Shown piece after piece: positions 26,290 through 60,080 of a stretch of 64,000 nucleotides of DNA. Each line of letters begins with the position of its first letter. The first letter of the stretch is position 1. The notes under the pieces were generated by a model. That model was not told the DNA's origin. It did not search any database and saw only the letters and a list, made by a program, of their open reading frames with translations. Location: positions 7,843 through 71,842 of the forward strand of contig JAFLEF010000035.1 of assembly GCA_017309115.1 (NCBI GenBank). The letters run 5' to 3'. Source of the DNA: Verrucomicrobiota bacterium. Lineage in GTDB: Bacteria > Verrucomicrobiota > Verrucomicrobiia > Limisphaerales > UBA9464. The position numbers were made by a program, and so were the translations under genes.

Positions 26290-26490
26290 GCCCGCTGTGG
26301 TAGGTCGAAGCTTCCGCTGAGCCGTTCACGCCGTGACGAGCCATGCGGCGTAGCCGCCGACGGAAGGAGGCGCCATTCAGTCTCGTGACGCGTTGATCGG
26401 AAACCGACGCGTGGGGTTTTCCAGACCAGTCAGCGCCTCGTTCCCTCGGCGTCTACTCTTCCTCCGCGGGAGACATTCCCTTACGCCAAT

Positions 26491-26590
26491 GATGGTAGGG
26501 CGAAGCTTCCGCTGAGCCGCTCACGTCAGAAGTAGTCACGCGTCGTTTCGCCATTACGCGAACGGCTCCGCAGAGCGTCGCCCTACCATC
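26491..26590. repeat. Module-A hairpin repeat (inverted orientation relative to the 57073 copy)
   Basis: 100-nt element with perfect 13-nt inverted termini GATGGTAGGGCGA ... TCGCCCTACCATC and inner arms GCTGAGCCG / CGGCTCCGCAGAGC. A partial left-arm copy lies at about 26297-26345 (GTGGTAGGTCGAAGCTTCCGCTGAGCCGTTCACG). Confidence 0.75.
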
Positions 26591-33955: not shown

Positions 33956-35497
33956 TCACTCCCACTCGATCGTACCGGGCGGCTTGCTGGTCAGATCCAG
34001 AACCACCCGATTGATCCCGCGCACTTCATTGGTGATGCGGGTGGAAATCTTCTCCAGCAAATCGTACGGCAAGCGAACCCAATCCGCCGTCATGCCGTCC
34101 TGGGATTCCACCGCCCGAATGGCCACGGTGAAGTCGTACGTACGCTCGTCTCCCTGCACACCCACGCTGCGCACTGGCAGGAGCACGGCAAAGGTCTGCC
34201 ACGTCTTGTAGTACAATCCGGCATCCTTCATTTCCGCGACCACGATGCTGTCGGCCAGACGAAGGATATCGAGCTTCTGCGCCGTGATTTCTCCCAGGCA
34301 CCGCACCGCGAGGCCAGGTCCCGGGAAGGGCTGCCGATAAACAATCTCCTTCGGCAATCCCAGCTCAAGACCCAACTGACGCACCTCGTCCTTGAAGAGG
34401 CAGCGCAGCGGTTCCACCAAGGCGAACTTCATCCGCTTGGGCAGTCCGCCCACGTTGTGGTGAGACTTGATCATGTGCGCCGGATTTCCGGCGATCGGCA
34501 CTGACTCAATGACGTCGGGGTAGAGTGTTCCCTGGGCGAGGAACTTGGCCTTGCCCGCCCGTTTGGTGGCCTTCTCGAACACGTCGATGAAGGTTTTGCC
34601 GATGATCTTCCGCTTACGTTCCGGGTCCGTGACGCCCTTGAGCGGCTTGAGAAAGGCCCGGGTGGCCTCCTCGTATTGCAGGTGAATCTTGAAATGCTTC
34701 TCGAACACATCACGAACCACCTCCGCCTCCCGGGCCCGGAGCAGACCGTTGTTCACGAAGATACAGGTGAGTTGGGGACCAATCGCTTTGTGCAACAGCG
34801 CGGCCGCCACACTGGAATCGACCCCACCGCTCAGCCCGAGAATGACCCGTTCGGAGCCCACCTGCGCCCGGATCTGTTCCACCGATTGCTCGATGTAATT
34901 CCGCATCGTCCAGTTGCTGCCACAGCCGCAAATTTGGTGAACGAAGTTGGCCAGGATCTCCTTGCCCCGGGGCGTGTGAACCACTTCGGGATGGAACTGA
35001 ATACCGAAGAGTTTGCGCGCCGGATGCTCGATGGCCGCGTAGTCGGAATTCTCCGTGGTCCCCACCACCACGAAGTCCTTGGGCAGCCGGGTCAGTTTAT
35101 CGCCGTGGCTGTTCCACACCTGCAAGGACTCGGGAAGCCCGGCGAAGAGCGCGCAGGCGGGATCGGCCACGGTCAGGGTGCCCTTGCCGTACTCGCGTTT
35201 CTGACCCCGCTCGACCTTGCCGCCAAGGAACTGGGCGAAGACCTGCACGCCGTAGCAGATTCCCAGGACCGGCACGCCGAGCTTGAAAATGGCCTTGTCC
35301 GGCAGAGGCGCACCGGGTGTGTAGACCGAATTGGGCCCGCCCGAAAGAATGATTCCCTTGGGAGCGAGTTTGGCGATCTCCGCGGCCGGGGTGTCGAAGC
35401 GCAAGATCGTGGAGTACACGCTGCACTCACGGATTCGGCGGGCAATGACCTGGGTGTATTGGCTACCGAAGTCGAGGATGACAATCTGCTCGTTCAT
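33956..35497 (-). CDS. guaA: GMP synthase (glutamine-hydrolysing)
   Basis: From ATG 35497: [29 protein letters not shown] (GATase), [18 protein letters not shown] (PP-loop), C-terminal ..KPPGTIEWE. The track start at 35680 adds 61 residues that lie in repeat/intergenic sequence. Confidence 0.97.
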
Positions 35498-35607
35498 GTC
35501 GTTTGAGCGAAAAGGAAGTGTGTGCCGCCGATGCCCGGCCTTTTCCAGCCATTTTTTGGAGTCCACCGCATTTGGGGGCATTTTGCGGTTGGAAGGGTCT
35601 CCCGCCC

Positions 35608-35813
35608 GGTGGGGCGACGCTCCGCGGAGCCGTTCCCTCGTGGACTCCGGACGCCTCACTCGCCGAGGCGCGAACAGCACGGTGTAACCTCGCCCTACCT
35701 ATGGAGTGCGGTGGCGCAGCCTGCGTAGCTACCGCTTTTCGTCCCGGCTGCTGACGCGTCGAACCACTCCACACCCTCACCCGCCTTCCATGCGCCCCAA
35801 AAGCGGCGGAGGG
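35608..35813 (+). repeat. Composite intergenic repeat, modules A (35608-35699), B (35702-35771) and truncated C (35772-35813)
   Basis: GGTGGGGCGACGCTCCGCGGAGCCGTTCCCTCGTGGACTCC...CGGTGTAACCTCGCCCTACC, then TGGAGTGCGGTGGCGCAGCCTGCGTAGCTACCGC...GACGCGTCGAACCACTCCA, then CACCCTCACCCGCCTTCCATGCGCCCCAAAAGCGG. Colinear with the copies at 57073 and 59781. Confidence 0.85.
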
Positions 35814-35924
35814 ATTAATCTGGAAAACAGGAAAACAGGAGAAAGACAGAAAGTTGAGTGCGCTCACTTAGGGAATGCGGTCGGCAGCAGACCATGCGTC
35901 GGACAAGTCCACATGCCCTCCTGC

Positions 35925-36049
35925 CACTCACGCGCCCCAAAGCGCCAGAGGGCTGGCGCAGTCCAAACGCTCCGCGCCTTCCTTGCCGCTTGCCGCTTCC
36001 CGCTTGCCGCTTCCCGCTTCCCGCTTTGCCTCTCAGCTCTCAGCTTCCC
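35925..36049 (+). repeat. Composite intergenic repeat, modules C and D, including a 6 x 7-bp tandem array (35985-36026)
   Basis: CACTCACGCGCCCCAAAGCGCCAGAGGGCTGGCGCAGTCCAAACGCTCCGCG, then GCCGCTT GCCGCTT CCCGCTT GCCGCTT CCCGCTT CCCGCTT, then TGCC TCTCAGC TCTCAGC TTCCC. The same C-D order is seen at 45500-45686 and 57237-57345. Confidence 0.85.
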
Positions 36050-36055
36050 TAGCCT

Positions 36056-38758
36056 CTATCGTTGGCCTTGGCCCGACCCATAAACCCGCCGCCGCTCCCG
36101 GAACAAGGACGTCCCCTCCGTCACTGCCCGATAGAACCTCAGCTCCGGTCCGCCCATCGGCACCGCATACGTCGGGGGCACGGCTCCTACCACCGGACTC
36201 CACGGACCCGCCGGGGTCGTTGCCGCTTCCAAGGTGCCCGTGAAGGTGATGATCACCTGCTGTCCGTCGGCCGATTCCGCAATCGTCGCCGTCGGAACCG
36301 TCGGGGTCGGCGTAAAGGTCAAAAACACCACGCCATTGGTCTCGCCTCCGCTCATCGCAAATTCTCCCGCGGCGAAACTGAAGTTCATCTCCTCAAAGTA
36401 GAACGTATAGGCGTCGTCGAACTCCCACACCGTCCAGGTGTGCGGCGATTCCCAAAACGGATCCCCACTGTCCGGATCGGTCTCGTCGGTGAAGTTCAGA
36501 TAGACGTCCGTTGTCTTCATCCAGAGCGGTCCCTCAAACCGCATCTGACTCCAGGCGTTGGTCCCGGGATCGGCATTGTCCTTCAACTCCGCCAACGTCC
36601 AGAAGTACTCCGTCGACTCGGCGAACACCGTTCGCCCCGCCCAGGTCAGAGTGCCCAATCCGCCACGAACAACTCCGGCCACCTGATTGGTCATCCTGAC
36701 CGTGTCATTCGGCCCGTTGGTTCCGATCACGCCCCACCCCTCCACTACCGAACCCGAGGTTGCCGTCAATGGCCCGGCGACCCGGCCCCCGTTCAGTCGG
36801 GCCGTCGCGCCGGTGCCCGTGAGAACCAAATCGCCGGCCAACACCGCGTTGGTTCCCGTCACGGCAAGCGTGGCGTCCTCGGCCACGACGGCGCTCGGAA
36901 GTGTCACTCGGTTATTGAAGACCACGGTGCCTCCCGCCACCGCCAGCGGAGCCGTCCATTGATTGGATCCGGAAAGAACCAAGGTTCCGGAACCAAACGT
37001 CGTCAGACTTCCCTGCCACCGCAGCGAACTTCGAATTTCATTGGTGGCGCCATTCACCGCCACAAAAGCCCGCGCGGATCCGAAATCAAGCAGGTCCACT
37101 TCGACGGTTCCCGAGTTCAACAGCACGCCCGCCAAATCCCCCTCCGGCGACGAACCCACCTGAATCGCCGAGCCCGGCCCACCGCTGCCCACCGTCTGCT
37201 GATTGACCACCAGTGCCCTCACCGCGGCGGTGGTTCCCGCCGCCACAGTCTGGGGCGTGTCCGCGGAGTACCGAACGACCGAGGTGCTCTGATCGAGGGG
37301 CAGGACGGCCGAGGACGTTACGGTCGCCAACTGAAAACCCGTGGTCTCGTCGTAGTTCAGGAATTGCAGCGAACCGCCGGCATCGGAATCCCGACCCACG
37401 ATCGCCGCCGTCATCTGGCCTGCCGTGGTCGCCGGCAGATTGGAACTCGTTCCGTTGACCAGCAGACGTTCCACCGTACCCAACCCCGTCAAACCACCGG
37501 CCGGGGCCAGAACCAGGGCGGCCGGGGGCTCGACGAGGAGGTTCGCCGTGGTCCCGTTGGTGTGGCCGCCCACCCGCAGCGTCAGCGACGTATTGGTGCC
37601 CCGGTCCCAGCGCAGCACGCCCGCTCCGTTGGTCATCGCCAGGTAGTGGCCCGGGCCGCTGGCCAGTTCAAGGCTCAGGTCCGTGGGAACCTCGTTCCGC
37701 GGGGCCACGAGCAATTCGGCGTCGCCGGACAACGTGATCGGTCCCGGTCCGAAGGGCGCCCCATGAAACCAGGAACTCGCCAGGACGCCGTCGGTCACGC
37801 GCTGCCATCCGGTGGACAGATTGGTGGTCTGGAACTGCAGGATGCCCTCGCCCGACTTCACGAATCCATAGTCCCCGCGGACCGGCGCCAGCACCTCCAA
37901 TTCCCCGCCGTTGCTGTTCACGATCTGCGTGGCCGTCAACTCCCACCACTGCGGCGCATAGCCCGGGCTTCCCGTCAGGGCGTTGGTGGAAAGGGTCCAG
38001 GAATCCCCACCCCACAAGACCGCCACGGTTCCCGCGTTCGGCCCCAACTCCGAGGTGAGGACCTGGGTGGACTTCAGCGAAGGATCAATATCAGGCAGCG
38101 TCCAGTCCGCCGGAACCGGCGCCAGATGGACGGTTTGCGGATTGGACCCGGGAACATTGGGAACGGGCAGGAAGGTGTCGGGAGCCGCGTTGTTCAGGGT
38201 CACCGTACCGGCCTGGGGATCGACGGCGAGCAAGGCCAGAACGTGTCCGCCAGTGTTGACGTAATTGGTCGTCTGACCCGGGGTGGCTGGCACGAACCAT
38301 CCAACGCTGAAGTTAACGACGCTTTGGTTGAAATTGTTGGTCGCCAGCCAGGCCACATCCGGGTTGGGCGAGAACACGCGCACCACCTGGTCCGGGCTGA
38401 TGCCGCGGGCGTTCAGATAGGTCATGAATCCCGAGTAATACCCATCCTCGTCCGTTCCGCCGGAAGCGGTGGTGCCCATCAATCCCCCGAGAACCCGGTC
38501 CAGATTGAGCGCGTCACTGCCTGCCGGATCTCCCAGTTGAGTGAACCCATTTCGGGCGAGCCACAACAGGGACATGGTGGCCGAGGTAGGACCACAGTAC
38601 GTCTCGCCATCGCCGGGCAGATATTCGCCATAGGGTCCAAAGTCGGTCTGAATCAGCGACGGCGTGTCCGTCACCTTGTCGGTCCATTGGGCGTGAACCG
38701 AAACACTGAGCAGCACCAGACACCCCAGCAGTCGCCGGTTGAAGAGGGTTTGCAACAT
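36056..38758 (-). CDS. Secreted protein: N-terminal C39-like (papain-fold) peptidase domain + autotransporter-associated beta-strand (PATR) repeats + C-terminal ..RFYRAV domain
   Basis: 900 aa with signal peptide MLQTLFNRRLLGCLVLLSVSVHAQ. GETYCGPTSATMSLLWLARNGF (candidate catalytic Cys) and NTGGHVLALLAVD (candidate His) resemble Peptidase_C39_2. The central region has repeated G(S/T)GTLVLSGSNQWTAPLAVAGGTVVFNN-type PATR units. The equal-length + strand ORF 36062-38764 is an antisense shadow. Confidence 0.8.
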   Translation of the reverse strand: MLQTLFNRRLLGCLVLLSVSVHAQWTDKVTDTPSLIQTDFGPYGEYLPGDGETYCGPTSATMSLLWLARNGFTQLGDPAGSDALNLDRVLGGLMGTTASGGTDEDGYYSGFMTYLNARGISPDQVVRVFSPNPDVAWLATNNFNQSVVNFSVGWFVPATPGQTTNYVNTGGHVLALLAVDPQAGTVTLNNAAPDTFLPVPNVPGSNPQTVHLAPVPADWTLPDIDPSLKSTQVLTSELGPNAGTVAVLWGGDSWTLSTNALTGSPGYAPQWWELTATQIVNSNGGELEVLAPVRGDYGFVKSGEGILQFQTTNLSTGWQRVTDGVLASSWFHGAPFGPGPITLSGDAELLVAPRNEVPTDLSLELASGPGHYLAMTNGAGVLRWDRGTNTSLTLRVGGHTNGTTANLLVEPPAALVLAPAGGLTGLGTVERLLVNGTSSNLPATTAGQMTAAIVGRDSDAGGSLQFLNYDETTGFQLATVTSSAVLPLDQSTSVVRYSADTPQTVAAGTTAAVRALVVNQQTVGSGGPGSAIQVGSSPEGDLAGVLLNSGTVEVDLLDFGSARAFVAVNGATNEIRSSLRWQGSLTTFGSGTLVLSGSNQWTAPLAVAGGTVVFNNRVTLPSAVVAEDATLAVTGTNAVLAGDLVLTGTGATARLNGGRVAGPLTATSGSVVEGWGVIGTNGPNDTVRMTNQVAGVVRGGLGTLTWAGRTVFAESTEYFWTLAELKDNADPGTNAWSQMRFEGPLWMKTTDVYLNFTDETDPDSGDPFWESPHTWTVWEFDDAYTFYFEEMNFSFAAGEFAMSGGETNGVVFLTFTPTPTVPTATIAESADGQQVIITFTGTLEAATTPAGPWSPVVGAVPPTYAVPMGGPELRFYRAVTEGTSLFRERRRVYGSGQGQR

Positions 38759-38907
38759 TCCTGAACCTCCCGCCGAATTCGGAACCCGGTCAAGCGCAGT
38801 CAGCTGCCGAATCTGCGGTTAAAACCTCCTCTCCCTTGAAGTCGGCAGGCACGCACTAATTAAAGAAAACGCTGCAGCCGAGCTGGCGGCGAAACCTCGC
38901 CCTACCC

Positions 38908-38985
38908 GGAGCGCTCGCGTCTCGCCGGCCAGTTTCCGAAGATGGTAGGAACATAAGAAACACGCCGGCGAGACGCCAGCGCTCC
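38908..38985. repeat. Long hairpin (22-nt arms, 1 mismatch) downstream of the PEP-CTERM gene; repeat-family relative and probable terminator/REP-like element
   Basis: GGAGCGCTCGCGTCTCGCCGGC (38908-38929) pairs with GCCGGCGAGACGCCAGCGCTCC (38964-38985). The 34-nt loop contains GATGGTAGG, the terminus of module A. It is preceded by a half module A, GAAACCTCGCCCTACC (38891-38906). Confidence 0.7.
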
Positions 38986-39010
38986 CACTCGACCGCGCCC
39001 CCTCGCCGAC

Positions 39011-39802
39011 TCACGGCCGACGACGCGAAACCCATCCGAGTGCCACTGCTCCCAACCCGAGAAGTGCCCAGGTGGCCGGCTCGGGTATGGCGGGCAGCGG
39101 ACTGAACGATAGATCGTCCAAGATGTGGCTTTGGGCGTCGGGTTGGCCGGGAAGCCTAGGAAAATCCCCGAAGTCATCGTAGCCCCGGCTGCGGAACTCG
39201 AAGCGGAGTTCGACGGTCTGGCCCGCGAACGGGCTCACATCCACTGCCAGGTAGCGAAATAAGGGAATCTCCGGATCACCAGTGGGAACATCCGGCAGGG
39301 CGACAAGGGAACGGAGTTCTCCTCCCACAAACACCTGCAGATCATCGCCGTGATTAAGGGGTCCTTGGTGGAGAAACTGGAGCGACCGGGCATCCGCCGG
39401 AATGTCGCCCGTCTGCCAGAGGACATAGGGATCGTAGACTCCGCCGGTGACCGTCAGGGAAAGGGGCCAGATTCCCAACGAGTAGTTGCCCACCACCGGA
39501 ACTCGGGCGTTACTGCCAAAATGGCTATCTCGGAAGTCACGATCCAGAAGGCTGGCCCACCCTGAAAAACGCTGACTATAGTTGTAGCCAACAGCGGACT
39601 GGTTTTGCGGCCCGGTATTCCAACCAGGGCGTACCCATTCACCGGGCGAACTCGCAAAGGGAGAGCCCGGGATTCGCGGGGGCACCCAATCCGGAAACAC
39701 CGGAGTATCGAATCCCAAGTTGATGAACGCCGCTGCTAAAACCTCGCTCCCAAGAGCGAAACAACAGGCGACAAGGCTTATCGAATGGCGGATCGAACTC
39801 AT
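39011..39802 (-). CDS. PEP-CTERM sorting-domain protein
   Basis: 263 aa with signal peptide MSSIRHSISLVACCFALGSEVLAAA. The C-terminus ..LPAIPEPATWALLGLGAVALGWVSRRRP has the PEP motif, a TM helix and a basic tail. Its ATG overlaps the stop of the upstream giant gene (ATGA at 39799-39802). Confidence 0.88.
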   Translation of the reverse strand: MSSIRHSISLVACCFALGSEVLAAAFINLGFDTPVFPDWVPPRIPGSPFASSPGEWVRPGWNTGPQNQSAVGYNYSQRFSGWASLLDRDFRDSHFGSNARVPVVGNYSLGIWPLSLTVTGGVYDPYVLWQTGDIPADARSLQFLHQGPLNHGDDLQVFVGGELRSLVALPDVPTGDPEIPLFRYLAVDVSPFAGQTVELRFEFRSRGYDDFGDFPRLPGQPDAQSHILDDLSFSPLPAIPEPATWALLGLGAVALGWVSRRRP

Positions 39803-42800
39803 GGCACGTTGATGAAGGCACTTTGGCTAAGGTTCCAGTAAGAGCCGCTCCCAGTAACCTGCAGGCGGGTGGCTTTAACTTGGTACATCGCTCCTGCCAC
39901 TGCGCTGCCATCAATGAATGACAGAGATGTGGTGGGGGAACTGTTCAGAAGAATCCAAGGGCCACCCAAGCCCGCAATACTGCGATAGATGTAGTAACCG
40001 CAACCCGGGTCCAAAGACGAATTCCAATTTAGGGTCGCGCTGGACCCGACACGGCTTCCTGTCAGGTAGGTTACGGGGCTTACCCGATGAAGCCGCAGAG
40101 TGGGATCACCCAAGATACTCTGAAAACGCCCCACGAAATCAATGTATCCTTCGTTGCGCCATCCCCGCTGCATGAGGTTCGCCAGCGGCGCGCCGGCTCC
40201 CAGTGGAGAAAAATCCCAAAGCGTTCCTCCCATGGTGGCCAGCCCATGGTTGGGCCAGCCAAGTGAAGCGCGGAGCCAGTTATCACTGATGGTAAACTCA
40301 CCGAGTGAATTCAGTCTCGCCCAATCTATCGCATACGAAAACCACACGTTTCGAAAGGTGACTGGCACCTCTTGGTTTGGATCGGCAAAACTAGCCGAGG
40401 TAAACTTGTCCGCAGTAAACCCATCCCACACATAATCATCATAACCGCCACTAAAATGAACTCCAAGGTCGGCGGGGACCTTGTCTCGCAAATTCGAGCC
40501 GGAGAAAAGCGTGGCTCGCGAAGCTCCAAAGGCGGCTCCGGCAAAACTTCGCCCTGCAATAAACCCATTATCGCCCCCTGAACCGGCATAGACTGAGACA
40601 CGACCAAAGGTGGGAATTTGATGGGCTCGATATCGGAAGTCTTTCGCCAGATACCGCTTGATTAAGTCGACTTCGGTTAAGCCTACAAAGACCGGCAAGC
40701 GGGCAAAATCTACCCGCCCAACACCACAATCGGCCGGGCCCGGCAAGAAGTCTAAGTCGAACGTGCCATCGTTCGCCGCATCGGTCCATGGAGCCTTGTT
40801 CAAGTATCCGTAAAAGGCATCGCAAACCCAAGCCCCAACGTGGTCACCATGGTTGTCCTGAGCATATGTCCCACTGTAGGGAATCGTGACGTGGCCGATT
40901 AGGAAAATGACGTTGGTAGTACCGGCTACACGGTTACTGGCGATCCAGTCAACAATATTGGTCAGATTTGGTCGGTTGGCGGCAAAGGTAAGATCATTAT
41001 GTCGAGGCGCATCGTATCGCGACACAACAGTCCACCCGTCCCCCACGAGGTTTGTGCGAAGTTGGGCCAGTTCTTGCGTCAAGCTCGGAGCAAGGGTCTC
41101 ATCCACCAGGAGCAGCACATTTCCTCGTTGATGCTGGGGCGGCATTTCGATACCGGCGACAAGGTGACGCGGGAGGAATTCACCAGGGAACCTCGCTTCA
41201 TACTCATAAGTAACTCCCTCGGATACATCAGGGTCGATCCATGTCTCCTGGTTTGTGTAGGCCGTAATCGGGCTACTCCAGGTAGTGGAACCCAGCGTTC
41301 GTCGCTTAAGCTGAAGAATGGTAGTTGGTTTTAAGACGTGGCTGATTGCTGCTACTGTTTCCGGATTTGCGCCCTGGTAATTTCGTGTAAACTGAATCTG
41401 CCGCACACCCGAATTGGTCACGATACTGAGAGTCAACTCTTGGTGGCGGTGGGACTCCACCGCGCCAAGCGGGTAGTTGAAGGTTTCAATACTATCAATC
41501 GTACCCTTGGCGGTCAGGGCGCCATCCCGACTAGCCCCGAAATGCATGCCTTCCGCGAGCCCACTGCTTGTCGGCATTTGAGCCGAATTAATTGCAGTGC
41601 CATGATTAACATAATAGCCACCGCGCCTCAACTCGGTTTTATATGGCCCATAAATCATCGTAAACTCATGCCAATTTGGCGGATTTGCCCACTGGGAAAT
41701 AGTCAATTCACTGTCGAACGTAGAGAATGGAAAGTTACCGCCGCCGTTCTGGCTAAACTTGATCCAAAAACGACCAGTAGCGTCGAAGTGCATGAACCAA
41801 GCCCACCAGCCTAGAGCAGCGTTGGTGTATTCTCCAACGTCGATCAGCGGAGCATTCCAAGCCGGCGGATTATTGGTCAGACTCCAGTTCGGCTTAAACC
41901 ACAGCCGGACAGTTCCCTGATCAAGGCGCAAGTTCAGCCGACCGGTCGAATCAGAAACGGGGTATCGGAGGGGGTTGTTGAGTAGATCTGGATGGCTCAC
42001 CACTGACACCCCATTTCCCACCATCCCAGACGCTGGGGTCTCTGGCCGGGGGCTCAGGACGATAGGTTGCTGACCGCGATCTCCTTGCATCCACGTTCCA
42101 CCGGCGCCATCCCACCACCAGGCGGCGAGGCGCTTGGGAATCCAACTGGCCTTGTCCTTGGGATTCGCCGAACCGGCGACTTCTTCCCCGTCCATAGCCC
42201 CGTCCCCATCGGTATCGGCATTCGTCCAGTTCGTTTCGCCTGCATCCACAACGCCGTCACCATCGCTGTCCTCCACGACGTCCGGCAGTCCGTCCTGGTC
42301 CGAGTCGGCCCAGGCGGACCCCGTCACGGCTGGGTAGTGGAAGCCGATGTCAACTTTGGTGGGATCATCGAGACCATCCTTGGTCTGGTCAGGAAGGGTG
42401 GTGGCGTGGAACAGCTGGGCCGCATTGGCACTTTGGCTCCCGGCGTTTCGCAAAGCCGCCAGAGTGGTGAGTCCGCCGGTGGAGGGGTAGTAGTAATTCC
42501 CCAGCGGCCCGGACTGGTAGACCGCCGCGATCGAAACTTTGTTGAAGGAACCTCCAAACCACGGGGTAGAATCGCTGTAGGCGTTGTAGCCCACAGTCAT
42601 TCCAGGCGAAAGCCAGCCACTGAACGAAGAGCCATCAAACAGATTCTCTCGAATGGTCCAACCTGAACCGCTCAGCGGCACGCCAACCGTCACGGATCCG
42701 CCCAAGAATAGATTGTTGCGGAAGGACAGCGTGCGAGCGTCGGTCGTCAGGGAACTAATGTTCACGCTCGAACGTGAGAAGAAGCAGTTCCGGCAGTTCA

Positions 42801-44916
42801 GTATTTGGGGAACACTGATGTCGGCAAAGGTCAGTCCGACACCATAGAACTGGCAATCTTGGAGAATGAAACTCGCCACAGGACGGGTATTGACTTCGGA
42901 ATAAAGACTCCGCCGATTCGCCACGTCCGCATTGGAATCGGCGCGCAGAAAACGGAGATCGATCGAGGGAGCGACGGATGCGCCGGAACTGGGCACTGCC
43001 AGAAATGATCGGGTCGGTGGGTTAGGAACTCCCAGGGGCAATTCTTGAACGATAGAGGCCCAAGCGAACCGATTGGGAGAATCGGGCCTCCCACGACTTG
43101 TCACCTTTGCACCAGATCCGAGGTTGAACAACGCATTGCCCGTTCCTGCCACGACAACACCATTGGTCAGGTAAACCGTGGCCCCAGTCACCATGGCTCC
43201 GCTGCTGAGAAAATGGATCGGCCAATAGTGGTAACCAATCCGGATCTCCGGGGAGGTCAGGGTGGGATCCGGCCCTCCCGACAGACTCAGGTCAAAACTG
43301 ACTGCGGAAGGCAACAATACGGGTGCCATGACCGTGGACTTCGCCAGTTCGGTCACCATCTCGGTATTCGGCGGTTGCAGACTGGTCGGGCGGGCATCCA
43401 ACCAACCCCGGACCGTCGGATTCATCAAGTTGAGGTAATGGGCTCCGCTTCCGGCGGTCACAAAGGGGTTGGCGGGCGGAACTCCGGAGTTCAAGAGACT
43501 CACTCCGGCGGTATTCACCACGTTGTAGATGAGTGAGTTCGCCAGACTCACCGTGGAGTAGTTGGGACTGTAGATGGATTGCTGAAGGGAACCGAGGGCA
43601 TTGAAGGTCAGGAACTCGGCGGAGACTTTGGCATAGTACAAATCGCGCCAGGCGGTGCTACCTGGGTTCGTGGAGTAGATCAGGCAATTCTGCACCTCGT
43701 AGGTGCTGCTTCCCGTGAAACCCAATTGAAATCGGAACGCTCCGTTGCAGTGCACGAACTGCCCGTGTCGAAGGGTCAGAATACTGTTGGCCGCACTAAA
43801 ATAGGTGGCTGCTACCCCCACGTCCGCATGGCGGATGCAAAGATTGGTCAGGATCAGCGGACTCGTTCGGCCAGTGCCGTCCAACTCGAGCGCCTTGGTG
43901 GCATAGGTTCCAGCGGGAGAGCCGGTCGAACTCGGTAAGGCTTCTCCCACCGAATTGTCGTCATATCCGGTCAGAACTACCGGGCGATACGGGGCTCCGA
44001 GCCACGTGATCGCCGTCCCGGCGAGGACCTTGAGGCTGGGCGAATTGGTTTTGGCGTACTTGATCACGGTGCCCGCTCGAAACGTGACACTCGAACTCAG
44101 GTTGACCAGACCGGAGACATAGTACGTGGTCAGACTGTCAAACGTCTGATTCGCCGACGAATTGACCAAGGTGTAGTCCAAGACCACGCCCGGAGCCGAA
44201 GGGCGGTTTTGCGCTACCCCGGCGCGGGGCGAGGACGTGGCGTTCATCGCCACCAGTCGACCCGCCTCCGTCCGACGCCAACTCGGGGCCACTCCGTTTC
44301 TGGAGGGAATCGAAAGCTGGGCGGTTCGCTGAACGTTCCGGATCCGTTGCCGATTCGGCGCGGTCGGCGCAGAGGCTTCGGGCAATTCCCGCAGAAGCGG
44401 CTCAAGGTCTCGATAAGCCGTTCGTTCGATGAGGAACTCCCGTCCTTCCCGTTGTTCCCAGCTCTTGCGCACGGGGACTTCCCGGGAATCCCGCTCACCC
44501 GGCAGGACAAACGCGCGGCCCCGATCCATCACCATCGGGCCAAAGGTGATTTGGGCATCCACCGCCGACTCCCGCTCTCCCACCGGCACTTCGCGAACCT
44601 CGACCGCCGTGGGTCGGCTGCCGAAGAACTCCGTGTAGACCTCGACATCCGTGGTGTCGGGGTTCATTCCATACTGCGCCGGGTCCGGCAGCGGTTCCCT
44701 CAGGATCAGGTCGCACTCGAAGCCCGCAGCCGTGTACACCGTCCGCAGATCGGCCGGAACGGAATCCAGCACGTTGGCATACAGCACGGTTCCAGGCTCA
44801 ATCTGTTCGGCACGCGACGACTGAACTTCCGCCAGTAGAACACTTTCGCCGCTGACGCGATCCGTGAAGGCCAGCAGCGCCGGCGAACTCCGCAAGGTCT
44901 GGCCGTCGGCCGGCAC
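39799..44916 (-). CDS. Giant surface protein (1705 aa as drawn): parallel beta-helix regions, TSP3-type Ca-binding Asp repeats, LamG-like domain, FN3-like domains, C25 (gingipain)-like domain
   Basis: Long ORF beginning at a GTG with no signal peptide of its own (see 44798-45307). Recognisable pieces are DSDQDGLPDVVEDSDGDGVVDAGETNWTNADTDGDGAMDGEE (TSP3-like); LRLDQGTVRLWFKPNW...WHEFTMIY (LamG-like); VIFLIGHVTIPYSG...PADCGVGRVDFARLPVF..EVDLIKRYLAKDFRYR (C25-like His and vGRl pattern, low confidence); and repeated N-rich beta-helix turns (NCLIYS, NSLIYN, RNNLFLGG, RENLFDG). Confidence 0.85.
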   Translation of the reverse strand: MPADGQTLRSSPALLAFTDRVSGESVLLAEVQSSRAEQIEPGTVLYANVLDSVPADLRTVYTAAGFECDLILREPLPDPAQYGMNPDTTDVEVYTEFFGSRPTAVEVREVPVGERESAVDAQITFGPMVMDRGRAFVLPGERDSREVPVRKSWEQREGREFLIERTAYRDLEPLLRELPEASAPTAPNRQRIRNVQRTAQLSIPSRNGVAPSWRRTEAGRLVAMNATSSPRAGVAQNRPSAPGVVLDYTLVNSSANQTFDSLTTYYVSGLVNLSSSVTFRAGTVIKYAKTNSPSLKVLAGTAITWLGAPYRPVVLTGYDDNSVGEALPSSTGSPAGTYATKALELDGTGRTSPLILTNLCIRHADVGVAATYFSAANSILTLRHGQFVHCNGAFRFQLGFTGSSTYEVQNCLIYSTNPGSTAWRDLYYAKVSAEFLTFNALGSLQQSIYSPNYSTVSLANSLIYNVVNTAGVSLLNSGVPPANPFVTAGSGAHYLNLMNPTVRGWLDARPTSLQPPNTEMVTELAKSTVMAPVLLPSAVSFDLSLSGGPDPTLTSPEIRIGYHYWPIHFLSSGAMVTGATVYLTNGVVVAGTGNALFNLGSGAKVTSRGRPDSPNRFAWASIVQELPLGVPNPPTRSFLAVPSSGASVAPSIDLRFLRADSNADVANRRSLYSEVNTRPVASFILQDCQFYGVGLTFADISVPQILNCRNCFFSRSSVNISSLTTDARTLSFRNNLFLGGSVTVGVPLSGSGWTIRENLFDGSSFSGWLSPGMTVGYNAYSDSTPWFGGSFNKVSIAAVYQSGPLGNYYYPSTGGLTTLAALRNAGSQSANAAQLFHATTLPDQTKDGLDDPTKVDIGFHYPAVTGSAWADSDQDGLPDVVEDSDGDGVVDAGETNWTNADTDGDGAMDGEEVAGSANPKDKASWIPKRLAAWWWDGAGGTWMQGDRGQQPIVLSPRPETPASGMVGNGVSVVSHPDLLNNPLRYPVSDSTGRLNLRLDQGTVRLWFKPNWSLTNNPPAWNAPLIDVGEYTNAALGWWAWFMHFDATGRFWIKFSQNGGGNFPFSTFDSELTISQWANPPNWHEFTMIYGPYKTELRRGGYYVNHGTAINSAQMPTSSGLAEGMHFGASRDGALTAKGTIDSIETFNYPLGAVESHRHQELTLSIVTNSGVRQIQFTRNYQGANPETVAAISHVLKPTTILQLKRRTLGSTTWSSPITAYTNQETWIDPDVSEGVTYEYEARFPGEFLPRHLVAGIEMPPQHQRGNVLLLVDETLAPSLTQELAQLRTNLVGDGWTVVSRYDAPRHNDLTFAANRPNLTNIVDWIASNRVAGTTNVIFLIGHVTIPYSGTYAQDNHGDHVGAWVCDAFYGYLNKAPWTDAANDGTFDLDFLPGPADCGVGRVDFARLPVFVGLTEVDLIKRYLAKDFRYRAHQIPTFGRVSVYAGSGGDNGFIAGRSFAGAAFGASRATLFSGSNLRDKVPADLGVHFSGGYDDYVWDGFTADKFTSASFADPNQEVPVTFRNVWFSYAIDWARLNSLGEFTISDNWLRASLGWPNHGLATMGGTLWDFSPLGAGAPLANLMQRGWRNEGYIDFVGRFQSILGDPTLRLHRVSPVTYLTGSRVGSSATLNWNSSLDPGCGYYIYRSIAGLGGPWILLNSSPTTSLSFIDGSAVAGAMYQVKATRLQVTGSGSYWNLSQSAFINVP

Positions 44917-45307
44917 CTGGAACCGTCAATTCCGTGGACAGCGCCACCTGATGCGGGCCGCGCGCCGCGACAAACCCATCTGGAACCGCCACAAACTCGG
45001 CCACGGTTTCCTGCAACTGGCCCTGCTCATCCCGGTAATGAAGGCCAGTCGCCACTTCGGTGTACCGGTTGGTGACCGATTGAGTCTCCCCGCTCTCGTC
45101 AGTCGTGGCGGTCACCCATTCCACCACCCGAAAATCCCCGCCCCGTTCCACCGTCACGGGAGCCGATTCGATCACCCGCGCGGGCTCCTTCGCAGGAGCA
45201 ACTCCCTGACCTTGAACCAGCAATCCCCACGGAAGGAAGAGGGTCAACAGACGGAGAAGAAGCGAAAGTCCGAATCGGGGGGGGGTAGAGCGAAATTGCA
45301 AGCCCAT
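44798..45307 (-). pseudogene. N-terminal (signal-peptide) fragment of the giant gene, separated from 39799-44916 by a 1-nt frame change
   Basis: 169-aa ORF MGLQFRSTPPRFGLSLLLRLLTLFLPWGLLVQGQG... reads sensibly up to ..HQVALSTELTVP. It then turns into Arg/Gly-rich out-of-frame sequence exactly where the other frame begins (V)PADGQTLRSSPALLAFTDRVSG. The two ORFs overlap by 119 nt. Confidence 0.6.
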
Positions 45308-45427
45308 AGTGACTTAAGGATTAAAAATCTGAACCTGAAACTAATTAATATTGGGACGGGTTTAAGGTCAATGAAAACTTCCCGTCAGGTACTTGGAAAT
45401 TGGAAACGAAACGGTGACGACGTGCTT

Positions 45428-45686
45428 TGGGCTGCGGTCGTGCCGCGCAGCGGAACTGATGCGTTTCGTTCCGGCTGCTGAGGCGCCAGTGCATCCACAA
45501 CCCTCACCCGCCATCAACGCGCCCCAAAGCGCCAGAGGGCGGGCGCAGTCCAAACGCTCCGCATTCGCTACACCGCGGGTAATCTCCAGACCTCCAGTCC
45601 TATTCACCCGAACGGCTCGGTGGAACCTCGCCCTACCGCTTCCCGCTTCCCGCTTCCCGCTTACCGCTTGCCTCTCAACTCTCAGC
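45428..45686 (+). repeat. Composite intergenic repeat: B-like (45428-45499), C (45500-45563), half A (45609-45637), D with a 5 x 7-bp array (45635-45669) and TCTCAAC TCTCAGC
   Basis: ..CGGCTGCTGAGGCGCCAGTGCATCCACA ACCCTCACCCGCCATCAACGCGCCCCAAAGCGCCAGAGGGCGGGCGCAGTCCAAACGCTCCGC ... CGAACGGCTCGGTGGAACCTCGCCCTACC GCTT CCCGCTT CCCGCTT CCCGCTT ACCGCTT GCC. The last 5 nt overlap the P450 stop codon region. Confidence 0.8.
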
Positions 45687-46902
45687 TAACTCCCCACACC
45701 ACCGGCAGTCGCGCCAGGGTGCGAAAGCGATCATGGGGAATCCACGTCAATTCGCGTTCCGGGATGGCCAGTCGCAGGCTGGGAAATCCCTGCACCAGGG
45801 CCTGCAGGGCCAATTGCCCCTCCACCCGCGCCAACGTCGCGCCCAGACAGAAATGCTCGCCGCCGCTGAAGGCCAAATGCCGGTTCGGATGTCGCGTGAT
45901 GTCGAAGCGCTCCGGATCCGGAAACGCCGCCGGATCCCGATTCACCGCCCCAATGATCACCGAAACCACGTCCCCCCGCCGAATCTGTTTCCCACCCACT
46001 TCGACGTCCGCCAGCGCCGCCAGCGGATTCGGCGCCTGCGTCGGCGGATCAAATCGCAGTCCCTCCTCCACCGCTGAGGGCACCCACTCCGGATGGCTTC
46101 GAAGCCGATCCCACTCCTCCGGATGCCGCAACAGCGCCAGCAGCGTGTTGGCCAGCAGGGCAATTCCCGGTCCGTGACCCGCCGCAAACACCGCGATGAA
46201 CAAACTGATCAGATCGTCATCACTCATCAGCCCTCCACTGGCCGCCGCCGCCTGCACGAAGCTGGAAACCAAATCATCCTGCGGATCCGCCCGACGCCGG
46301 GCGATCAATTCGCGAAAGTACTGGGTGAACTGATCTGCCGCCCGATTCGCTGCGGCGGTTGATTCCGGATCCCGGGCCACTCCCCGACCCGCCACCAGCG
46401 GGAAGATCCACTCAACGATCTGGGCCCGCTCAGACTCCGGCACGCCCAACCACATGGCCGCTACCTGCGTGGGATAGGTCCGGGCAAAATCCCCGATTAC
46501 ATCCATCTCCCCCCGCGACCGCAACGCACCCAACTGACGCTCGATGAACTCCTGAACCTGAGGTTGCAGCGCCTGCATCGACTTCGGGGTCAACACTGAC
46601 GTGATCAGCACCCGCAGCTCGTGGTGGCGCGGATTGTCCGTGAACACCAATTCGTGCCGTTGCATGCGAACGATCGGTTGGTCGCCCAAGCGCGCCTGCA
46701 CCTGATCCAAAAACGCCTGGCGACTGAATTGATCACTCTTCAACACGACCTCGGCATCGGCATACCGGGTGATCGCCCACAACTTCGCGCCGGGGCACCA
46801 GTGCACGGGATCGGTTTCGCGGACGGTGCGATAGATCGGGTAAGGATCGGGCACGCCGGGTAGCGTGGGATTGGCGTCAAACTCGGCCGTCATGGGATCC
46901 AT
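45682..46902 (-). CDS. Cytochrome P450
   Basis: 406 aa with the heme-thiolate loop FSGGEHFCLGATLARVE and ExxR in VEEGLRFDPP. The I-helix reads FAAGHGPGIALL and so lacks the usual acid-alcohol pair. Confidence 0.93.
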   Translation of the reverse strand: MDPMTAEFDANPTLPGVPDPYPIYRTVRETDPVHWCPGAKLWAITRYADAEVVLKSDQFSRQAFLDQVQARLGDQPIVRMQRHELVFTDNPRHHELRVLITSVLTPKSMQALQPQVQEFIERQLGALRSRGEMDVIGDFARTYPTQVAAMWLGVPESERAQIVEWIFPLVAGRGVARDPESTAAANRAADQFTQYFRELIARRRADPQDDLVSSFVQAAAASGGLMSDDDLISLFIAVFAAGHGPGIALLANTLLALLRHPEEWDRLRSHPEWVPSAVEEGLRFDPPTQAPNPLAALADVEVGGKQIRRGDVVSVIIGAVNRDPAAFPDPERFDITRHPNRHLAFSGGEHFCLGATLARVEGQLALQALVQGFPSLRLAIPERELTWIPHDRFRTLARLPVVWGVS

Positions 46903-46969
46903 TTAATTGGCGAACCCCTGAAGTTGGAACCGAGAACTGACGGGAATGCTGGTTCCGCATCGTTTTGGC

Positions 46970-57072: not shown

Positions 57073-57345
57073 GGTAGAGCGACGCTCCGCGGAGCCGTTC
57101 CCTCGTGGACTCCTGACGCGTCACTCGCCGAGACGCGAACGGCTCGGTGTAACCTCGCCCTACCTTTGGAGTGCGGTAGCGAAGCCCGCGTAGCTACTGC
57201 TTTTCGACTCGGCTGCTGACGCGTCGAGTCACTCCAACCCTCACCCGCCTCCCACGCGCCCCAAAGCGCTGGTGCACTCCAAACTCTCGCTTCCCGCTTG
57301 CCGCTTACCGCTTACCGGTTTTGCCTCTCAGCTCTCAGCTTCCCC
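57073..57345 (+). repeat. Most complete composite intergenic repeat: A (57073-57164), B (57167-57236), C (57237-57289), D (57290-57345)
   Basis: A: GGTAGAGCGACGCTCCGCGGAGCCGTTC...GAACGGCTCGGTGTAACCTCGCCCTACC (inverted arms). B: TGGAGTG CGGTAGC..GCTACTG...GACGCGTCGAGT CACTCCA. C: ACCCTCACCCGCCTCCCACGCGCCCCAAAGCGC.. D: CTTCCCGCTTGCCGCTTACCGCTTACCGG..TCTCAGCTCTCAGCTTCCC. Confidence 0.88.
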
Positions 57346-59780: not shown

Positions 59781-60080
59781 GATAGAGCGACGCTCCGCGG
59801 AGCCGTTCGCGTCCCGGCGAAATGACGCGTCACGACACCACCCCCGCACGGCCCCGCTGAGCGTCGCCCCACCAAATTTGGGGTGCGGCAGCGAAGCCTG
59901 CGTAGCTTCCGCTTTCCGTCTCGGCTGCTGACGCGTCGAACCACTCCAACCCTCACCCGCCCTCCACGCGCCCCAAAGCGCCAAAGCGCCAAAGCGCCAG
60001 AGGGCTAGAGGGCTAGAGCACCTCAAACGCTTCGCGCTCCCCTGTTCTTCCTTCGCCCTTACCGCTTACCCCTTACCCGC
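59781..60080 (+). repeat. Composite intergenic repeat: A (59781-59873), B (59877-59949), expanded C with internal tandem 8-mers (59950-60038), degenerate D (60055-60080)
   Basis: GATAGAGCGACGCTCCGCGGAGCCG ... CGGCCCCGCTGAGCGTCGCCCCACC (25-nt inverted arms); TTTGGGGTGCGGCAGCGAAGCCTGCGTAGCTTCCGC..GACGCGTCGAACCACTCCAA; CCCTCACCCGCCCTCCACGCGCCCCAAAGCGCCAAAGCGCCAAAGCGCCAGAGGGCTAGAGGGCTAGAGC; CCCTTACCGCTTACCCCTTACCCGC. Confidence 0.85.

Follow-up and report, generated by a model that had tools for sequence, protein, structure and literature searches.

Intergenic repeat mosaics with replication-strand polarity, probably built from REP/REPIN/BIME-type units, in a Verrucomicrobiota genome

Introduction

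What are the hairpin-rich, modular sequences that recur between the genes of this bacterium, and how might they have come to stand there? The question is raised by a stretch of 64,000 nt (the window) on contig JAFLEF010000035.1 of a 7.53-Mb Verrucomicrobiota MAG. An earlier note on this DNA described four modules, A to D, at six intergenic sites, and proposed that they might be structured ncRNAs, MITE-like selfish elements or transcript-end elements. Each of the six sites and each of the four modules proved to be present as described (Table 1). Here we analyze their anatomy, their distribution over the whole genome, their relatives in other genomes and the explanations that have to be weighed for them.

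Results

Mosaics of optional modules, in the window and genome-wide

The copy at 35608 is longer than the other ones and contains an insert of ~105 nt. Its first module C is cut after AGAGGG, and the same insert junction recurs in other C copies. In the copy at 59781, module A consists of two like arms (L-L) and obtains its best nhmmer score in the reverse orientation, module C contains internal duplications (AAAGCGCC three times, AGAGGGCT twice), and (CCCTTAC) x3.3 occupies the position of module D.

Table 1. Module sites in the window, with the parts of the copy at 35608
Feature	Position	Strand	Evidence and remarks
A-B-(cut C)-insert-C-D composite	35608-36049	+ (module A part:.)	
35608 composite, module A, REP doublet (REPIN)	35608..35699	.	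nhmmer 61 bits, full length; arm L GGTGGGGCGACGCTCCGCGGAGCCG, ~40-nt spacer, inverted arm R ...CGGTGTAACCTCGCCCTACC
35608 composite, module B	35702..35766	+	nhmmer 67.6 bits; left half TGGAGTGCGG-hairpin-CCGCTTTT
35608 composite, first module C	35771..35814	+	ends early after ...CCCCAAAAGCGGCGGAGGG; weak nhmmer match (L006 3325-3355) and direct reading
35608 composite, foreign insert within C	35815..35919	+	starts with ATTAATCTGGAAAACAGGAAAACAGG, a GGAAAACA-word arm
35608 composite, second module C	35920..35975	+	nhmmer 55.7 bits; hairpin GCGCCAG-AGGG-CTGGCGC, then AGTCC^AAACGCTCCGC (^, group II intron insertion point in other copies)
35608 composite, module D	35976..36049	+	TRF; nhmmer 51 bits; (CCGCTTN) x5.9 at 35986-36026, then (TCTCAGC) x2.3 at 36030-36045
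Module A with degenerate arm	26298..26586	.	full module A 26495-26586; degenerate arm 26298-26351, 195 nt upstream
End of A arm adjoining unrelated hairpin	38891..38985	.	arm end GCGAAACCTCGCCCTACC; 29-nt arms, 90% complementary
B-C-(single A arm)-D composite	45430..45687	+	B 45430-45488, C 45511-45561, single R-type REP arm ~45610-45637, D 45634-45687
Compact A-B-C-D copy	57073..57345	+	module C shortened
A-B-C-D copy	59781..60080	+	L-L type module A

Iterated nhmmer searches over the whole genome revealed 435 loci of module A, 164 of B, 143 of C and 314 of D, which form 668 composite sites and make up ~1% of the DNA. Between 83 and 93% of the module matches are fully intergenic (85.5% for A), in a genome of which 16.6% is non-coding, and convergent gene pairs, 18% of all gene pairs, hold 31% of the oriented composite sites. 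The modules follow the colinear order A-B-C-D and each of them is optional: AD occurs 47 times (DA 6), BC 29, ABCD 8 and BCD 7, and 69 B, 38 C and 125 D modules stand alone. A module lies within 400 nt of 72 of the 222 contig ends, where ~10 would be expected. About one third to one half of the breaks between contigs of this MAG are due to the repeats together with the group II intron described below. The repeats also yield spurious ORFs.

Module A is a doublet of REPs

Module A is a REPIN, or "HH dimer", a form described previously (PMC3733652, PMC3333891), and consists of two unlike REPs of ~30 nt in inverted order. Arm L reads GT(A/G)G-GGCGACGCTCCGCGGAGCCG and arm R reads GTAG-GGCGAGGTTCCACCGAGCCG; 460 of the 472 arm heads (97%) are either GTAG (240) or GTGG (220), and in the consensus each arm contains a small stem-loop. 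The arms pair as L-R in 110 cases, L-L in 9 and R-R in 3, and 187 of the 210 head-out doublets are spaced 90-92 nt. REP singlets are present too, joined to B, to an inverted C or to D. Copies are 92% identical to their nearest neighbour, with an all-pair median of 78%. The consensus folds as a 92-nt DNA hairpin (-28.3 kcal/mol, z = -3.9 versus shuffles) in which mismatches are fixed at 10-81 (C.C), 12-79 (C.A) and 18-73 (G.G); in the REPs of E. coli, a stem mismatch is required for TnpA-REP binding (PMC3333891). The flanks of 236 full A copies contain no target-site duplication, in agreement with the earlier note, and the palindrome extends instead (CCCCG...CGGGG). The same note had judged the elements far larger and more structured than REP/BIME. 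That claim fails, since REPs in a fixed order with extra motifs are the definition of a BIME.

Modules B and C make up another inverted doublet, and module D consists of two heptamer arrays

Together, B and C constitute another inverted doublet, based on a hairpin unit that differs from the one in A and has the ends CGCGAAGCGTTTGGAGTGCGG...CGCAGTCCAAACGCTTCGCG. The left part of B is an inverted relative of the C hairpin unit, and its right part is exclusive to B. B had been pictured as an inner stem closed by an outer TGGAGTG/CACTCCA stem. The inner stem is indeed conserved, without covariation; the outer one is confined to a single subfamily. In the fold as proposed, 82.5% of cells pair, no better than with shuffled partners, and the pairing values are no higher than in 434-499 of 500 shuffles. 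The C hairpin is 96% Watson-Crick over 108 copies, and 35 of them carry a CG-to-GC swap that is probably a single subfamily event.

Module D had been read as a CCGCTTN array followed by TCTCAGC. It consists of two distinct heptanucleotide arrays, (CCGCTTN)n and then (TCTCAGC)n, that belong to genome-wide families. TRF revealed 452 arrays of TCTCAGC, 165 of CCGCTTA, 111 of CCCCTTA, 84 of CCCGCTT and 200 of TCTCAAC; the named heptamer words amount to 1,035 arrays with a median of 3-4 units. The G-rich strand of D reads (GGGAAGC)n or (GGTAAGC)n and contains AGCGG and GAAGCGG, which serve as Chi in B. subtilis and S. aureus. Arms of the GGAAAACA word, as in the insert of the 35608 copy, also flank a PDDEXK_3 gene elsewhere in the genome (C106:13215-13553). 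A link between PDDEXK_3 (GxxExxY) genes and module D was considered and dropped: both such genes in this genome are flanked by other words (GGAAAACA, GCAGATT) and not by D words.

Modules C and D follow the replication strand

The orientation of the modules was compared with the replication strand, using the skew of coding DNA with all repeats masked. The two agree at 173 of 215 independent sites (80%, p = 1e-18), and 30 of 31 contigs are concordant. Agreement amounts to 91% for sites with C only, 91% for BC, 94% for BCD and 81% for D only. B-only sites are without polarity (57%), and none was seen for module A genome-wide, so that the polarity is confined to C and D. With respect to the flanking genes, no module has a preferred orientation anywhere in the genome; between co-directional genes, C points either way in 24 and 27 cases and D in 53 and 61. 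The earlier note had observed that the three full copies in the window and the one at 45428 share the "+" orientation whatever the direction of the genes around them; this is the case because the orientation of C and D tracks the replication strand. Hundreds of the heptamer arrays are likewise ordered by the replication strand and not by genes, and we know of no report of replication polarity for known heptamer repeat families. The gene-strand bias (r = 0.34) points to the G-rich strand as the leading strand; the contig with dnaA has no skew switch, and the sign of the polarity therefore rests on that bias. Mobilisation of single strands at the replication fork would be expected to leave a polarity of this kind, as in IS200/IS605 elements, the transposition of which is tied to the template of the lagging strand (PMC3333891, PMC6006769). 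The polarity offers a simple genomic test of fork-coupled mobilisation in uncultured bacteria.

A group II intron homes to module C

A small group II intron homes to the C hairpin with the following AGTCC; it was found in module C at GCGCAGTCC^AAACGC, 5 nt past the hairpin, at no fewer than 26 contig ends. The intron starts with 5' GUGCG and is 1.85 kb long. Its domain V/VI matches RF00029 with 54.8-56.3 bits (gathering score 40 bits), and its protein contains RVT_1 and GIIM (reverse transcriptase and maturase) without a nuclease (endonuclease) domain. No strand polarity was seen for the intron, because it has entered the inverted left end of B as well. Group IIC introns are known to enter DNA just behind the stem-loops of terminators or behind other inverted repeats (PMC1702495). 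The intron that targets C resembles them in its GUGCG start, its domain V/VI, the lack of a nuclease domain and its site behind a hairpin; unlike them, it lands in a dispersed repeat and not in gene terminators. With a dispersed repeat as homing site, one selfish element can multiply the safe landing sites of another.

Relatives of the repeats and candidate partner enzymes

The 21-nt core of arm L (GGGCGACGCTCCGCGGAGCCG) occurs 519 times in this genome. In 12 congeners it occurs 39, 17 and 10 times and in the rest 0-5 times (control sequences 0-2), which is a 10- to 500-fold difference in copy number. Judged by these counts, 519 versus 0-39, the family is expanded in this lineage. The core is also letter-identical in MAGs of Verrucomicrobiota, Lentisphaeria, Kiritimatiellae, Victivallales and Phycisphaerae, and the A doublet is present in MAGs of Chthoniobacterales/"Spartobacteria". 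At 74 public loci with the A core from other lineages, neither modules B, C and D nor a Y1 gene were present, and a literature search with the core sequence gave no match.

No module A lies beside any of the 5 Y1_Tnp genes in this genome, whose assembly is broken at these repeats, or beside any of 30 Y1_Tnp loci (of 44 matches) in four congeners. The sole classical RAYT-like gene here, on contig C23, is flanked by a different repeat family, and the Y1 gene on contig C97, for a protein of 206 aa, lies within an ordinary operon; the candidate Y1 proteins of contigs C50, C22 and C33 have about 350-390 aa. In one congener (G002), C-like modules adjoin 2 of the examined copies of a multi-copy Y1-like gene, outside the repeated unit. 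The same 5 genes and 30 congener loci yielded no full-length element that combines the hairpin ends of B/C with a Y1 transposase. Upstream of guaA, the 12 congeners have no modules, but the neighbouring gene differs there. A 20-kb DNA comparison with relatives showed only 69-77% identity and a patchy synteny. The relatives compared, 70-75% identical in DNA and with a broken synteny at the examined sites, provided no pair of empty and filled sites, and an exact-protein look-up returned no record of strain variants.

Discussion

The element at 35608, one of about 670 such sites, is probably a local accumulation of REP/REPIN/BIME-like DNA repeats that neither code for protein nor move autonomously. 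Among the roles offered in the earlier note, the MITE-like selfish element comes closest: the repeats are high-copy and intergenic, break the assembly and are expanded in the lineage, as selfish DNA would be. According to this explanation, the units would multiply in the genome as DNA, settle where they do the least harm, between genes and most often convergent ones, and land beside or inside each other to build colinear mosaics. The motor would most likely be an HUH/Y1 enzyme that works in trans and is either of the RAYT (TnpA-REP) type or related to it; the substrates of such enzymes are hairpins in the single-stranded DNA of replication forks. Such a mechanism would account for the presence of the C/D G-rich strand on the G-rich strand (leading, that is, the lagging-strand template) at 80-94% of sites. 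The C hairpin with AGTCC would in turn have become the homing site of the intron. Two observations do not fit neatly. The exact conservation of the L core across PVC classes is atypical of REPINs, and strand polarity is absent from module A and from B-only sites. The identity of one REP arm across classes is hard to square with the speed at which REPINs usually turn over, and it suggests that a conserved partner protein exists.

Could C, D and the heptamer arrays instead be replication-oriented signals selected by the host, chromosome-architecture sequences similar to KOPS or Chi, or sites of a PVC DNA-binding protein, with the A core kept by selection? An orientation that follows replication strongly and transcription not at all would suit such signals, as would the AGCGG and GAAGCGG within D and a 21-nt core that is exact in MAGs of five PVC groups. 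Known polar signals, however, are scattered through coding DNA and not stacked in intergenic arrays, and outside the arrays the leading-strand skew of the heptamers is not unusual, with z = 2.6 for GCTGAGA, z = -2.1 for GGTAAGC and only the 96th percentile among 6,062 heptamer pairs for GAAGCGG. The idea of a Chi/KOPS-like signal was dropped on these grounds, and that of a G-quadruplex because the canonical motif occurs in only 30 of the 1,035 arrays. In addition, a copy number that varies 10- to 500-fold among congeners, and the absence of B, C and D from the other lineages with the A core, are unlike a signal that the host needs. We thus consider host selection unlikely. The same holds for its extended form, in which the L core would be the recognition site of a PVC-wide protein, C and D would be host chromosome signals on the single-stranded lagging-strand template, and the mosaic would have been domesticated.

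A role as RNA, either as structured ncRNAs or, like some REPs, as hairpins at 3' ends by which the transcripts next to them are stabilised or terminated, would draw on the stable hairpins of A and C, on the enrichment between convergent genes, that is, after gene ends, and on the compensated CG-to-GC swap in C. An inverted C also reads as a hairpin followed by TTTGGGG, and transcription of many REPs has been argued (PMC3733652). Against this, no Rfam family matched in the window at its gathering score; with the threshold relaxed to E<=1, nothing but a 16-bit chance match came up in 35500-36100. The check for compensatory changes that the earlier note had proposed gave none in A or B and one swapped pair in C: double changes in A number 44 versus 70 expected, with no covariation beyond conservation, and the pairing of B is equalled by shuffles. 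G:T pairs are near balance with A:C pairs (671 versus 531 in A, 9 versus 7 in C), no terminator-like site was detected in 35400-36250, and between co-directional genes the modules are oriented evenly. Neither the ncRNA nor the transcript-end role is therefore upheld, and we regard an action as RNA as quite unlikely. Very unlikely, in our view, is that the repeats are cut-and-paste MITEs whose terminal inverted repeats are served by a DDE transposase, encoded by a full-length insertion sequence at another place in the genome. The inverted ends of A and of the BC unit, the size of 90-200 nt and the high copy number are those of MITEs, but the 236 full A copies lack a target-site duplication, a strand polarity of 80-94% is unexpected for a double-strand cut-and-paste process, no longer element with shared ends was seen among the repeats, and the GTAG/GTGG heads indicate the REP class.

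Comparison with known repeat systems

REP, BIME and REPIN systems have been worked out almost wholly in Proteobacteria, and the strand polarity, the intron landing and the cross-class core of the repeats that we assign to this kind provide new handles on the spread of such repeats and on what makes use of them. Like the REPINs or HH dimers that accompany RAYT in Pseudomonas, E. coli and Opitutus terrae (PMC3116915, PMC3733652, PMC3333891), module A consists of inverted, imperfect palindromes of ~30 nt with the tag outwards, a conserved spacer and fixed stem mismatches, and it exists in hundreds of extragenic copies, as singlets, doublets and tandem clusters, whose number varies widely between relatives. 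In O. terrae, itself a verrucomicrobium, GTAG-tagged REPs form HH dimers with conserved spacers and show a GTAG-to-GTGG change (PMC3733652); GTGG heads, which module A has besides GTAG, are found in most of its GTAG-20 units. The sequence of module A is unrelated to the REP families of O. terrae, judged only from the peptides that these encode. In contrast to REPINs, which normally differ from species to species, several PVC classes share an identical core of the L arm, and no RAYT gene flanked by module A REPs was found among the 5 Y1_Tnp genes here, the 30 congener loci and the 74 public loci.

The composites resemble the BIMEs of E. coli, in which two REP types likewise occur together with conserved motifs that are not palindromic; in both, the order is fixed, single parts may be missing and tandem amplification occurs. 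Unlike in BIMEs, the extra motifs are high-copy, also occur alone, include heptamer arrays and are oriented with replication. With IS200/IS605 elements and their gene-less derivatives, the repeats share hairpin ends, the lack of target duplication and a strong fork-orientation bias; they differ in that this bias is borne by C and D and not by A, that no conserved tetra- or pentanucleotide target is evident and that no full-length element with B/C ends was found among the loci surveyed. Finally, module D is similar to the cyanobacterial STRR, to the GGGNATC repeats of Xanthomonas and Nostoc (PMC4692102) and to the TAACTGA repeats of Beggiatoaceae (PMC4679880), being composed of intergenic tandem heptamers in hundreds of arrays. 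In contrast to these known heptamer repeats, the D family uses other words (TCTCAGC, CCGCTTA, CCCCTTA, CCCGCTT, TCTCAAC), and its arrays mostly lack G-quadruplex capacity and are physically joined to REP-type hairpins.

Distribution of the modules across the genome

Direct reading of the sequence bore out the six window sites described in the earlier note, and a repeat finder run without any prior recovered the same families (D1-D3, D5, D7, D8, D11; inverted pairs I1-I5). Profile searches seeded with the window copies were iterated over the whole genome (7.53 Mb in 111 contigs, 61.5% G+C), and the resulting module loci were merged, across strands and overlaps, into 668 composite sites. Modules and heptamer arrays together occupy ∼82 kb, or 1.1% of the genome. 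Between 83 and 93% of module hits lay wholly outside called genes, compared to a non-coding share of 16.6%, and at least one unit was present in 18% of all intergenic gaps of at least 50 nt in the genome. Composites were colinear in module order (AD 47 versus DA 6; BC 29; ABCD 8; BCD 7; ABC 5), and each module was also found alone (A 197, D 125, B 69, C 38). Thus, the repeats first noted are genuine, and those in the window represent only a few members of a system that extends across the genome.

Modules, arrays and associated features (C + number, contigs of the studied genome; L + number, fetched loci)
Feature	Location	Number	Remarks
Module A	Genome-wide	435 loci	Iterated profile search
Module B	Genome-wide	164 loci	Iterated profile search
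Module C	Genome-wide	143 loci	Iterated profile search
Module D	Genome-wide	314 loci	Iterated profile search
TCTCAGC arrays	Genome-wide	452	TRF
TCTCAAC arrays	Genome-wide	200	TRF
CCGCTTA arrays	Genome-wide	165	TRF
CCCCTTA arrays	Genome-wide	111	TRF
CCCGCTT arrays	Genome-wide	84	TRF
Main copy	Window 35608-36049		Its insert contains a gene-less stuttered-word arm piece
Gene-less pieces of both stuttered-word arm types	Window 35815-35850, 38795-38830		In or beside repeat mosaics
PDDEXK_3 (GxxExxY) genes	C106:13215-13553, C100:1462-1797 (L128, L129)	2	Each framed by "stuttered-word" arms, (GGAAAACA)n and (GCAGATT)n
Composite units	C1:215878-216452	3	Exact 277-bp period (core-match list)
Tandem A copies with a D array	C66:14072-14700	5	∼1.3 kb upstream of a dnaA match (16032-16511)
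Deacetylase-like ORF	C97:10496-10900		Another repeat (translated ...RLKAGLRTGTPNEDFRKARSPGFSRWGCGVSWALWKFLRVSS..., twice) forms the called N-terminus; called start probably spurious
Region between guaA and distant genes	Window 35500-46970		PATR-repeat protein, 1,705-aa protein, cytochrome P450, three repeat sites
RAYT-like Y1 gene	C23:115840-117460 (L001)		Several copies of another repeat (…CCCAGGGCGTTGCCCTGGGCTATCGCCTGGCGCCCCGTTGGGGC…) on both sides
Y1-like unit of congener G002	L036, L040, L043, L045, L048, L051	At least 6 copies	∼1.15 kb, 93-95% identical, two in tandem
Intron copies at the ends of the window's contig	C41:1-114, C41:79694-79787 (outside the window)	2
Full intron copy, public metagenome contig	L053:553-2406	1	1,854 nt

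Architecture of the modules

Rather than one continuous palindrome, module A consists of two unlike units in inverted order. Read head-first, arm L is GT(G/A)G-GGCGACGCTCCGCGGAGCCG and the right arm, R, is GTAG-GGCGAGGTTCCACCGAGCCG; GTAG or GTGG stands at 460 of 472 arm heads. Pairings between L and R were seen 110 times, L-L 9 times and R-R 3 times, and in 187 of 210 doublets the heads were 90-92 nt apart. The differences between the arms leave the A hairpin with fixed mismatches and wobbles (10-81, 12-79, 18-73, 3-88, 16-75). Single A arms also occurred, joined to B, inverted C or D. Since A stands in either orientation relative to B-D within composites (68 versus 56), it is an independent insert.

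Module C (CAAAGCG-stem-loop-CGCAGTCCAAA) has an inverted relative in the left part of B (TTTGGAGTGCGG-stem-loop-CCGCTTTT), and one BC subfamily has ∼20-nt inverted repeats at its ends (CGCGAAGCGTTTGGA(C/G)TGCGG ... CGCAGTCCAAACGCTTCGCG). BC is therefore a hairpin doublet as well, but an asymmetric one. Module D comprises two heptamer arrays. Heptamer arrays have a median of 3-4 units by TRF, and (TCTCAGC)n supplies the commonest 16-mers of the genome. Further modules exist beyond the four initially recognized, for example a CCTTCACCGTCTCTCCAAGTCTCCCC block after C and arms built of GGAAAACA and GCAGATT words.

Module orientation follows GC skew

GC skew, calculated in 50-kb windows from coding DNA only and with all repeats masked, was bimodal (about -0.06 to -0.09 or about +0.07 to +0.09). 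Where the + strand was G-rich, module C lay in the "-" orientation in 57 of 63 cases; where it was C-rich, C was "+" in 33 of 37 (p = 5e-16). Module D and the TCTCAGC, CCGCTTA, CCCCTTA and CCCGCTT arrays behaved in the same manner. With each site counted once and a minimum spacing of 2 kb, 173 of 215 (80%) were concordant (p = 1e-18; C only 91%, BC 91%, BCD 94%, D only 81%), and the majority orientation was opposite in sign to the skew in 30 of the 31 contigs having at least three sites. No strand polarity was detected for A (p = 0.8), for B-only sites (57%) or for the palindromically arranged TCTCAAC arrays. The "+" orientation of all window copies is explained by the window skew of -0.08.

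The G-rich strands of modules and genome coincide. Since genes prefer this strand (r = 0.34), it is presumed to be the leading strand (lagging-strand template); no origin was located. The same heptamers showed no unusual skew outside arrays, and the polarity is therefore a property of the elements and not an oligomer bias of the genome.

Pairing as RNA or as DNA

On the question of whether the elements act as RNA or as DNA, the absence of a preferred direction relative to flanking co-directional genes is the most telling point (A 78 versus 91, B 30 versus 29, C 24 versus 27, D 53 versus 61). Rfam gave no match, and no promoter- or terminator-like sites were found in the element. Pairing in A was 73% Watson-Crick, with 44 doubly changed pairs versus 70 expected under independent columns, and G:T pairs (671) were barely above A:C pairs (531); this pairing is accounted for by conservation of both arms. 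The structure put forward for B failed under shuffling: 82.5% of its cells pair, a value equalled or exceeded by 434 of 500 partner shuffles, with one double change, and RNAalifold kept only a short invariant inner stem. The C hairpin was 96% paired, and in 35 of 107 copies one pair was swapped from CG to GC, which shows that this stem matters, be it in RNA or in DNA.

A group II intron enters module C

Many BC copies break off after GCGCAGTCC and continue as GTGCGTTTGTGAAACTGATGAG..., an intron 5′ end. Such ends were found 26 times, all but one ∼180 nt or less from a contig end, and the matching 3′ end (...GAGCCGGATGCGGGAGATCCGCACGTCCGGTTC...CCTACCTCTAT^AAACGCTTCG) lay at 24 or more contig ends (31 by pattern count) and scored 54.8 bits against Rfam RF00029 (gathering score 40 bits). 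At least 26 intron copies have their ends at contig ends of this genome, and the body of the intron is missing from the MAG. The full copy on the metagenome contig encodes RVT_1 and GIIM domains without a nuclease domain, and is positioned 5 nt after a hairpin then AGTCC, as at module C. Every intron copy has the insertion point CAGTCC^AAACGC, either in module C or in the inverted left end of B (3′ exons AAGACGCTTCGCGTGG); because the latter is also entered, the intron's own orientation shows no polarity. In this placement after a hairpin, the intron resembles group IIC introns (PMC1702495).

Signs of proliferation and the search for a partner enzyme

A module lay within 400 nt of 72 of the 222 contig ends, versus ∼10 expected. 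The 21-nt L core (up to 3 mismatches) occurred 519 times in this genome, compared to 39, 17, 10, 5 and 0-2 in 12 congeneric genomes and 0-2 in controls. Copies of A had a median identity of 78% and a nearest-neighbour identity of 92%, and 50 had a partner at 97% identity or more. Upstream of guaA no module was found in the 12 congeners, but the adjoining gene differs from that of the studied genome, and this comparison yielded no filled-and-empty site pair. In one congener (G001), guaA directly abuts genes that here are 11 kb away (window 46970-49860), so the intervening ∼11 kb is lineage-specific DNA.

Mobility of the units is inferred, as is an enzyme that would move them. None of the five Y1_Tnp (PF01797) genes in the genome had an A-D module within reach, and none of 30 Y1 loci from four congeners was flanked by A. 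One of these five, on C23 (150 aa), has another repeat around it (CCCAGGGCGTTGCCCTGGGCTATCGCC...), which probably represents a further REP family that has a REPtron itself. The congener G002 has a multi-copy Y1-like gene (328-354 aa), with a C-like module beside two of those inspected, but outside the repeated unit. Its protein has an N-terminal Y1_Tnp-like HUH motif, and the unit may be an active transposon that supplies a candidate trans-acting enzyme. The assembly of the studied genome is broken at these very repeats, so a partner gene may have escaped detection.

Spread of the A core and relation to known repeats

The exact 21-mer A core was present in at least 74 public loci, from Chthoniobacterales/"Spartobacteria" and other Verrucomicrobiota MAGs as well as from Lentisphaeria, Victivallales, Kiritimatiellae (L068) and Phycisphaerae MAGs; B, C and D were absent from these loci. 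Verrucomicrobiota loci carry the core as shorter GGTAGGGCGA...TCGCCCTACC doublets, the head is GGAG in Kiritimatiellae and Lentisphaeria, and the Lentisphaeria MAG JAFGRS01 (L054, L056, L125) has same-strand tandem arrays with periods of 32, 38 or 60 nt. REPINs are not usually conserved in this way, and this is the chief puzzle here.

The repeat system is of a known kind, the REP/REPIN/BIME class. GTAG-tagged REPs and "HH dimers" with conserved spacers have been described, with GTGG in place of GTAG in the majority of units in one REP family of the verrucomicrobium Opitutus terrae (PMC3733652), and module A fits that description; it also matches the REP + iREP pairs known as BIMEs or REPINs (PMC3333891, PMC6006769). 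Three features are new here: asymmetric modules and heptamer arrays oriented by replication, a homing site for an intron, and one arm conserved across classes.
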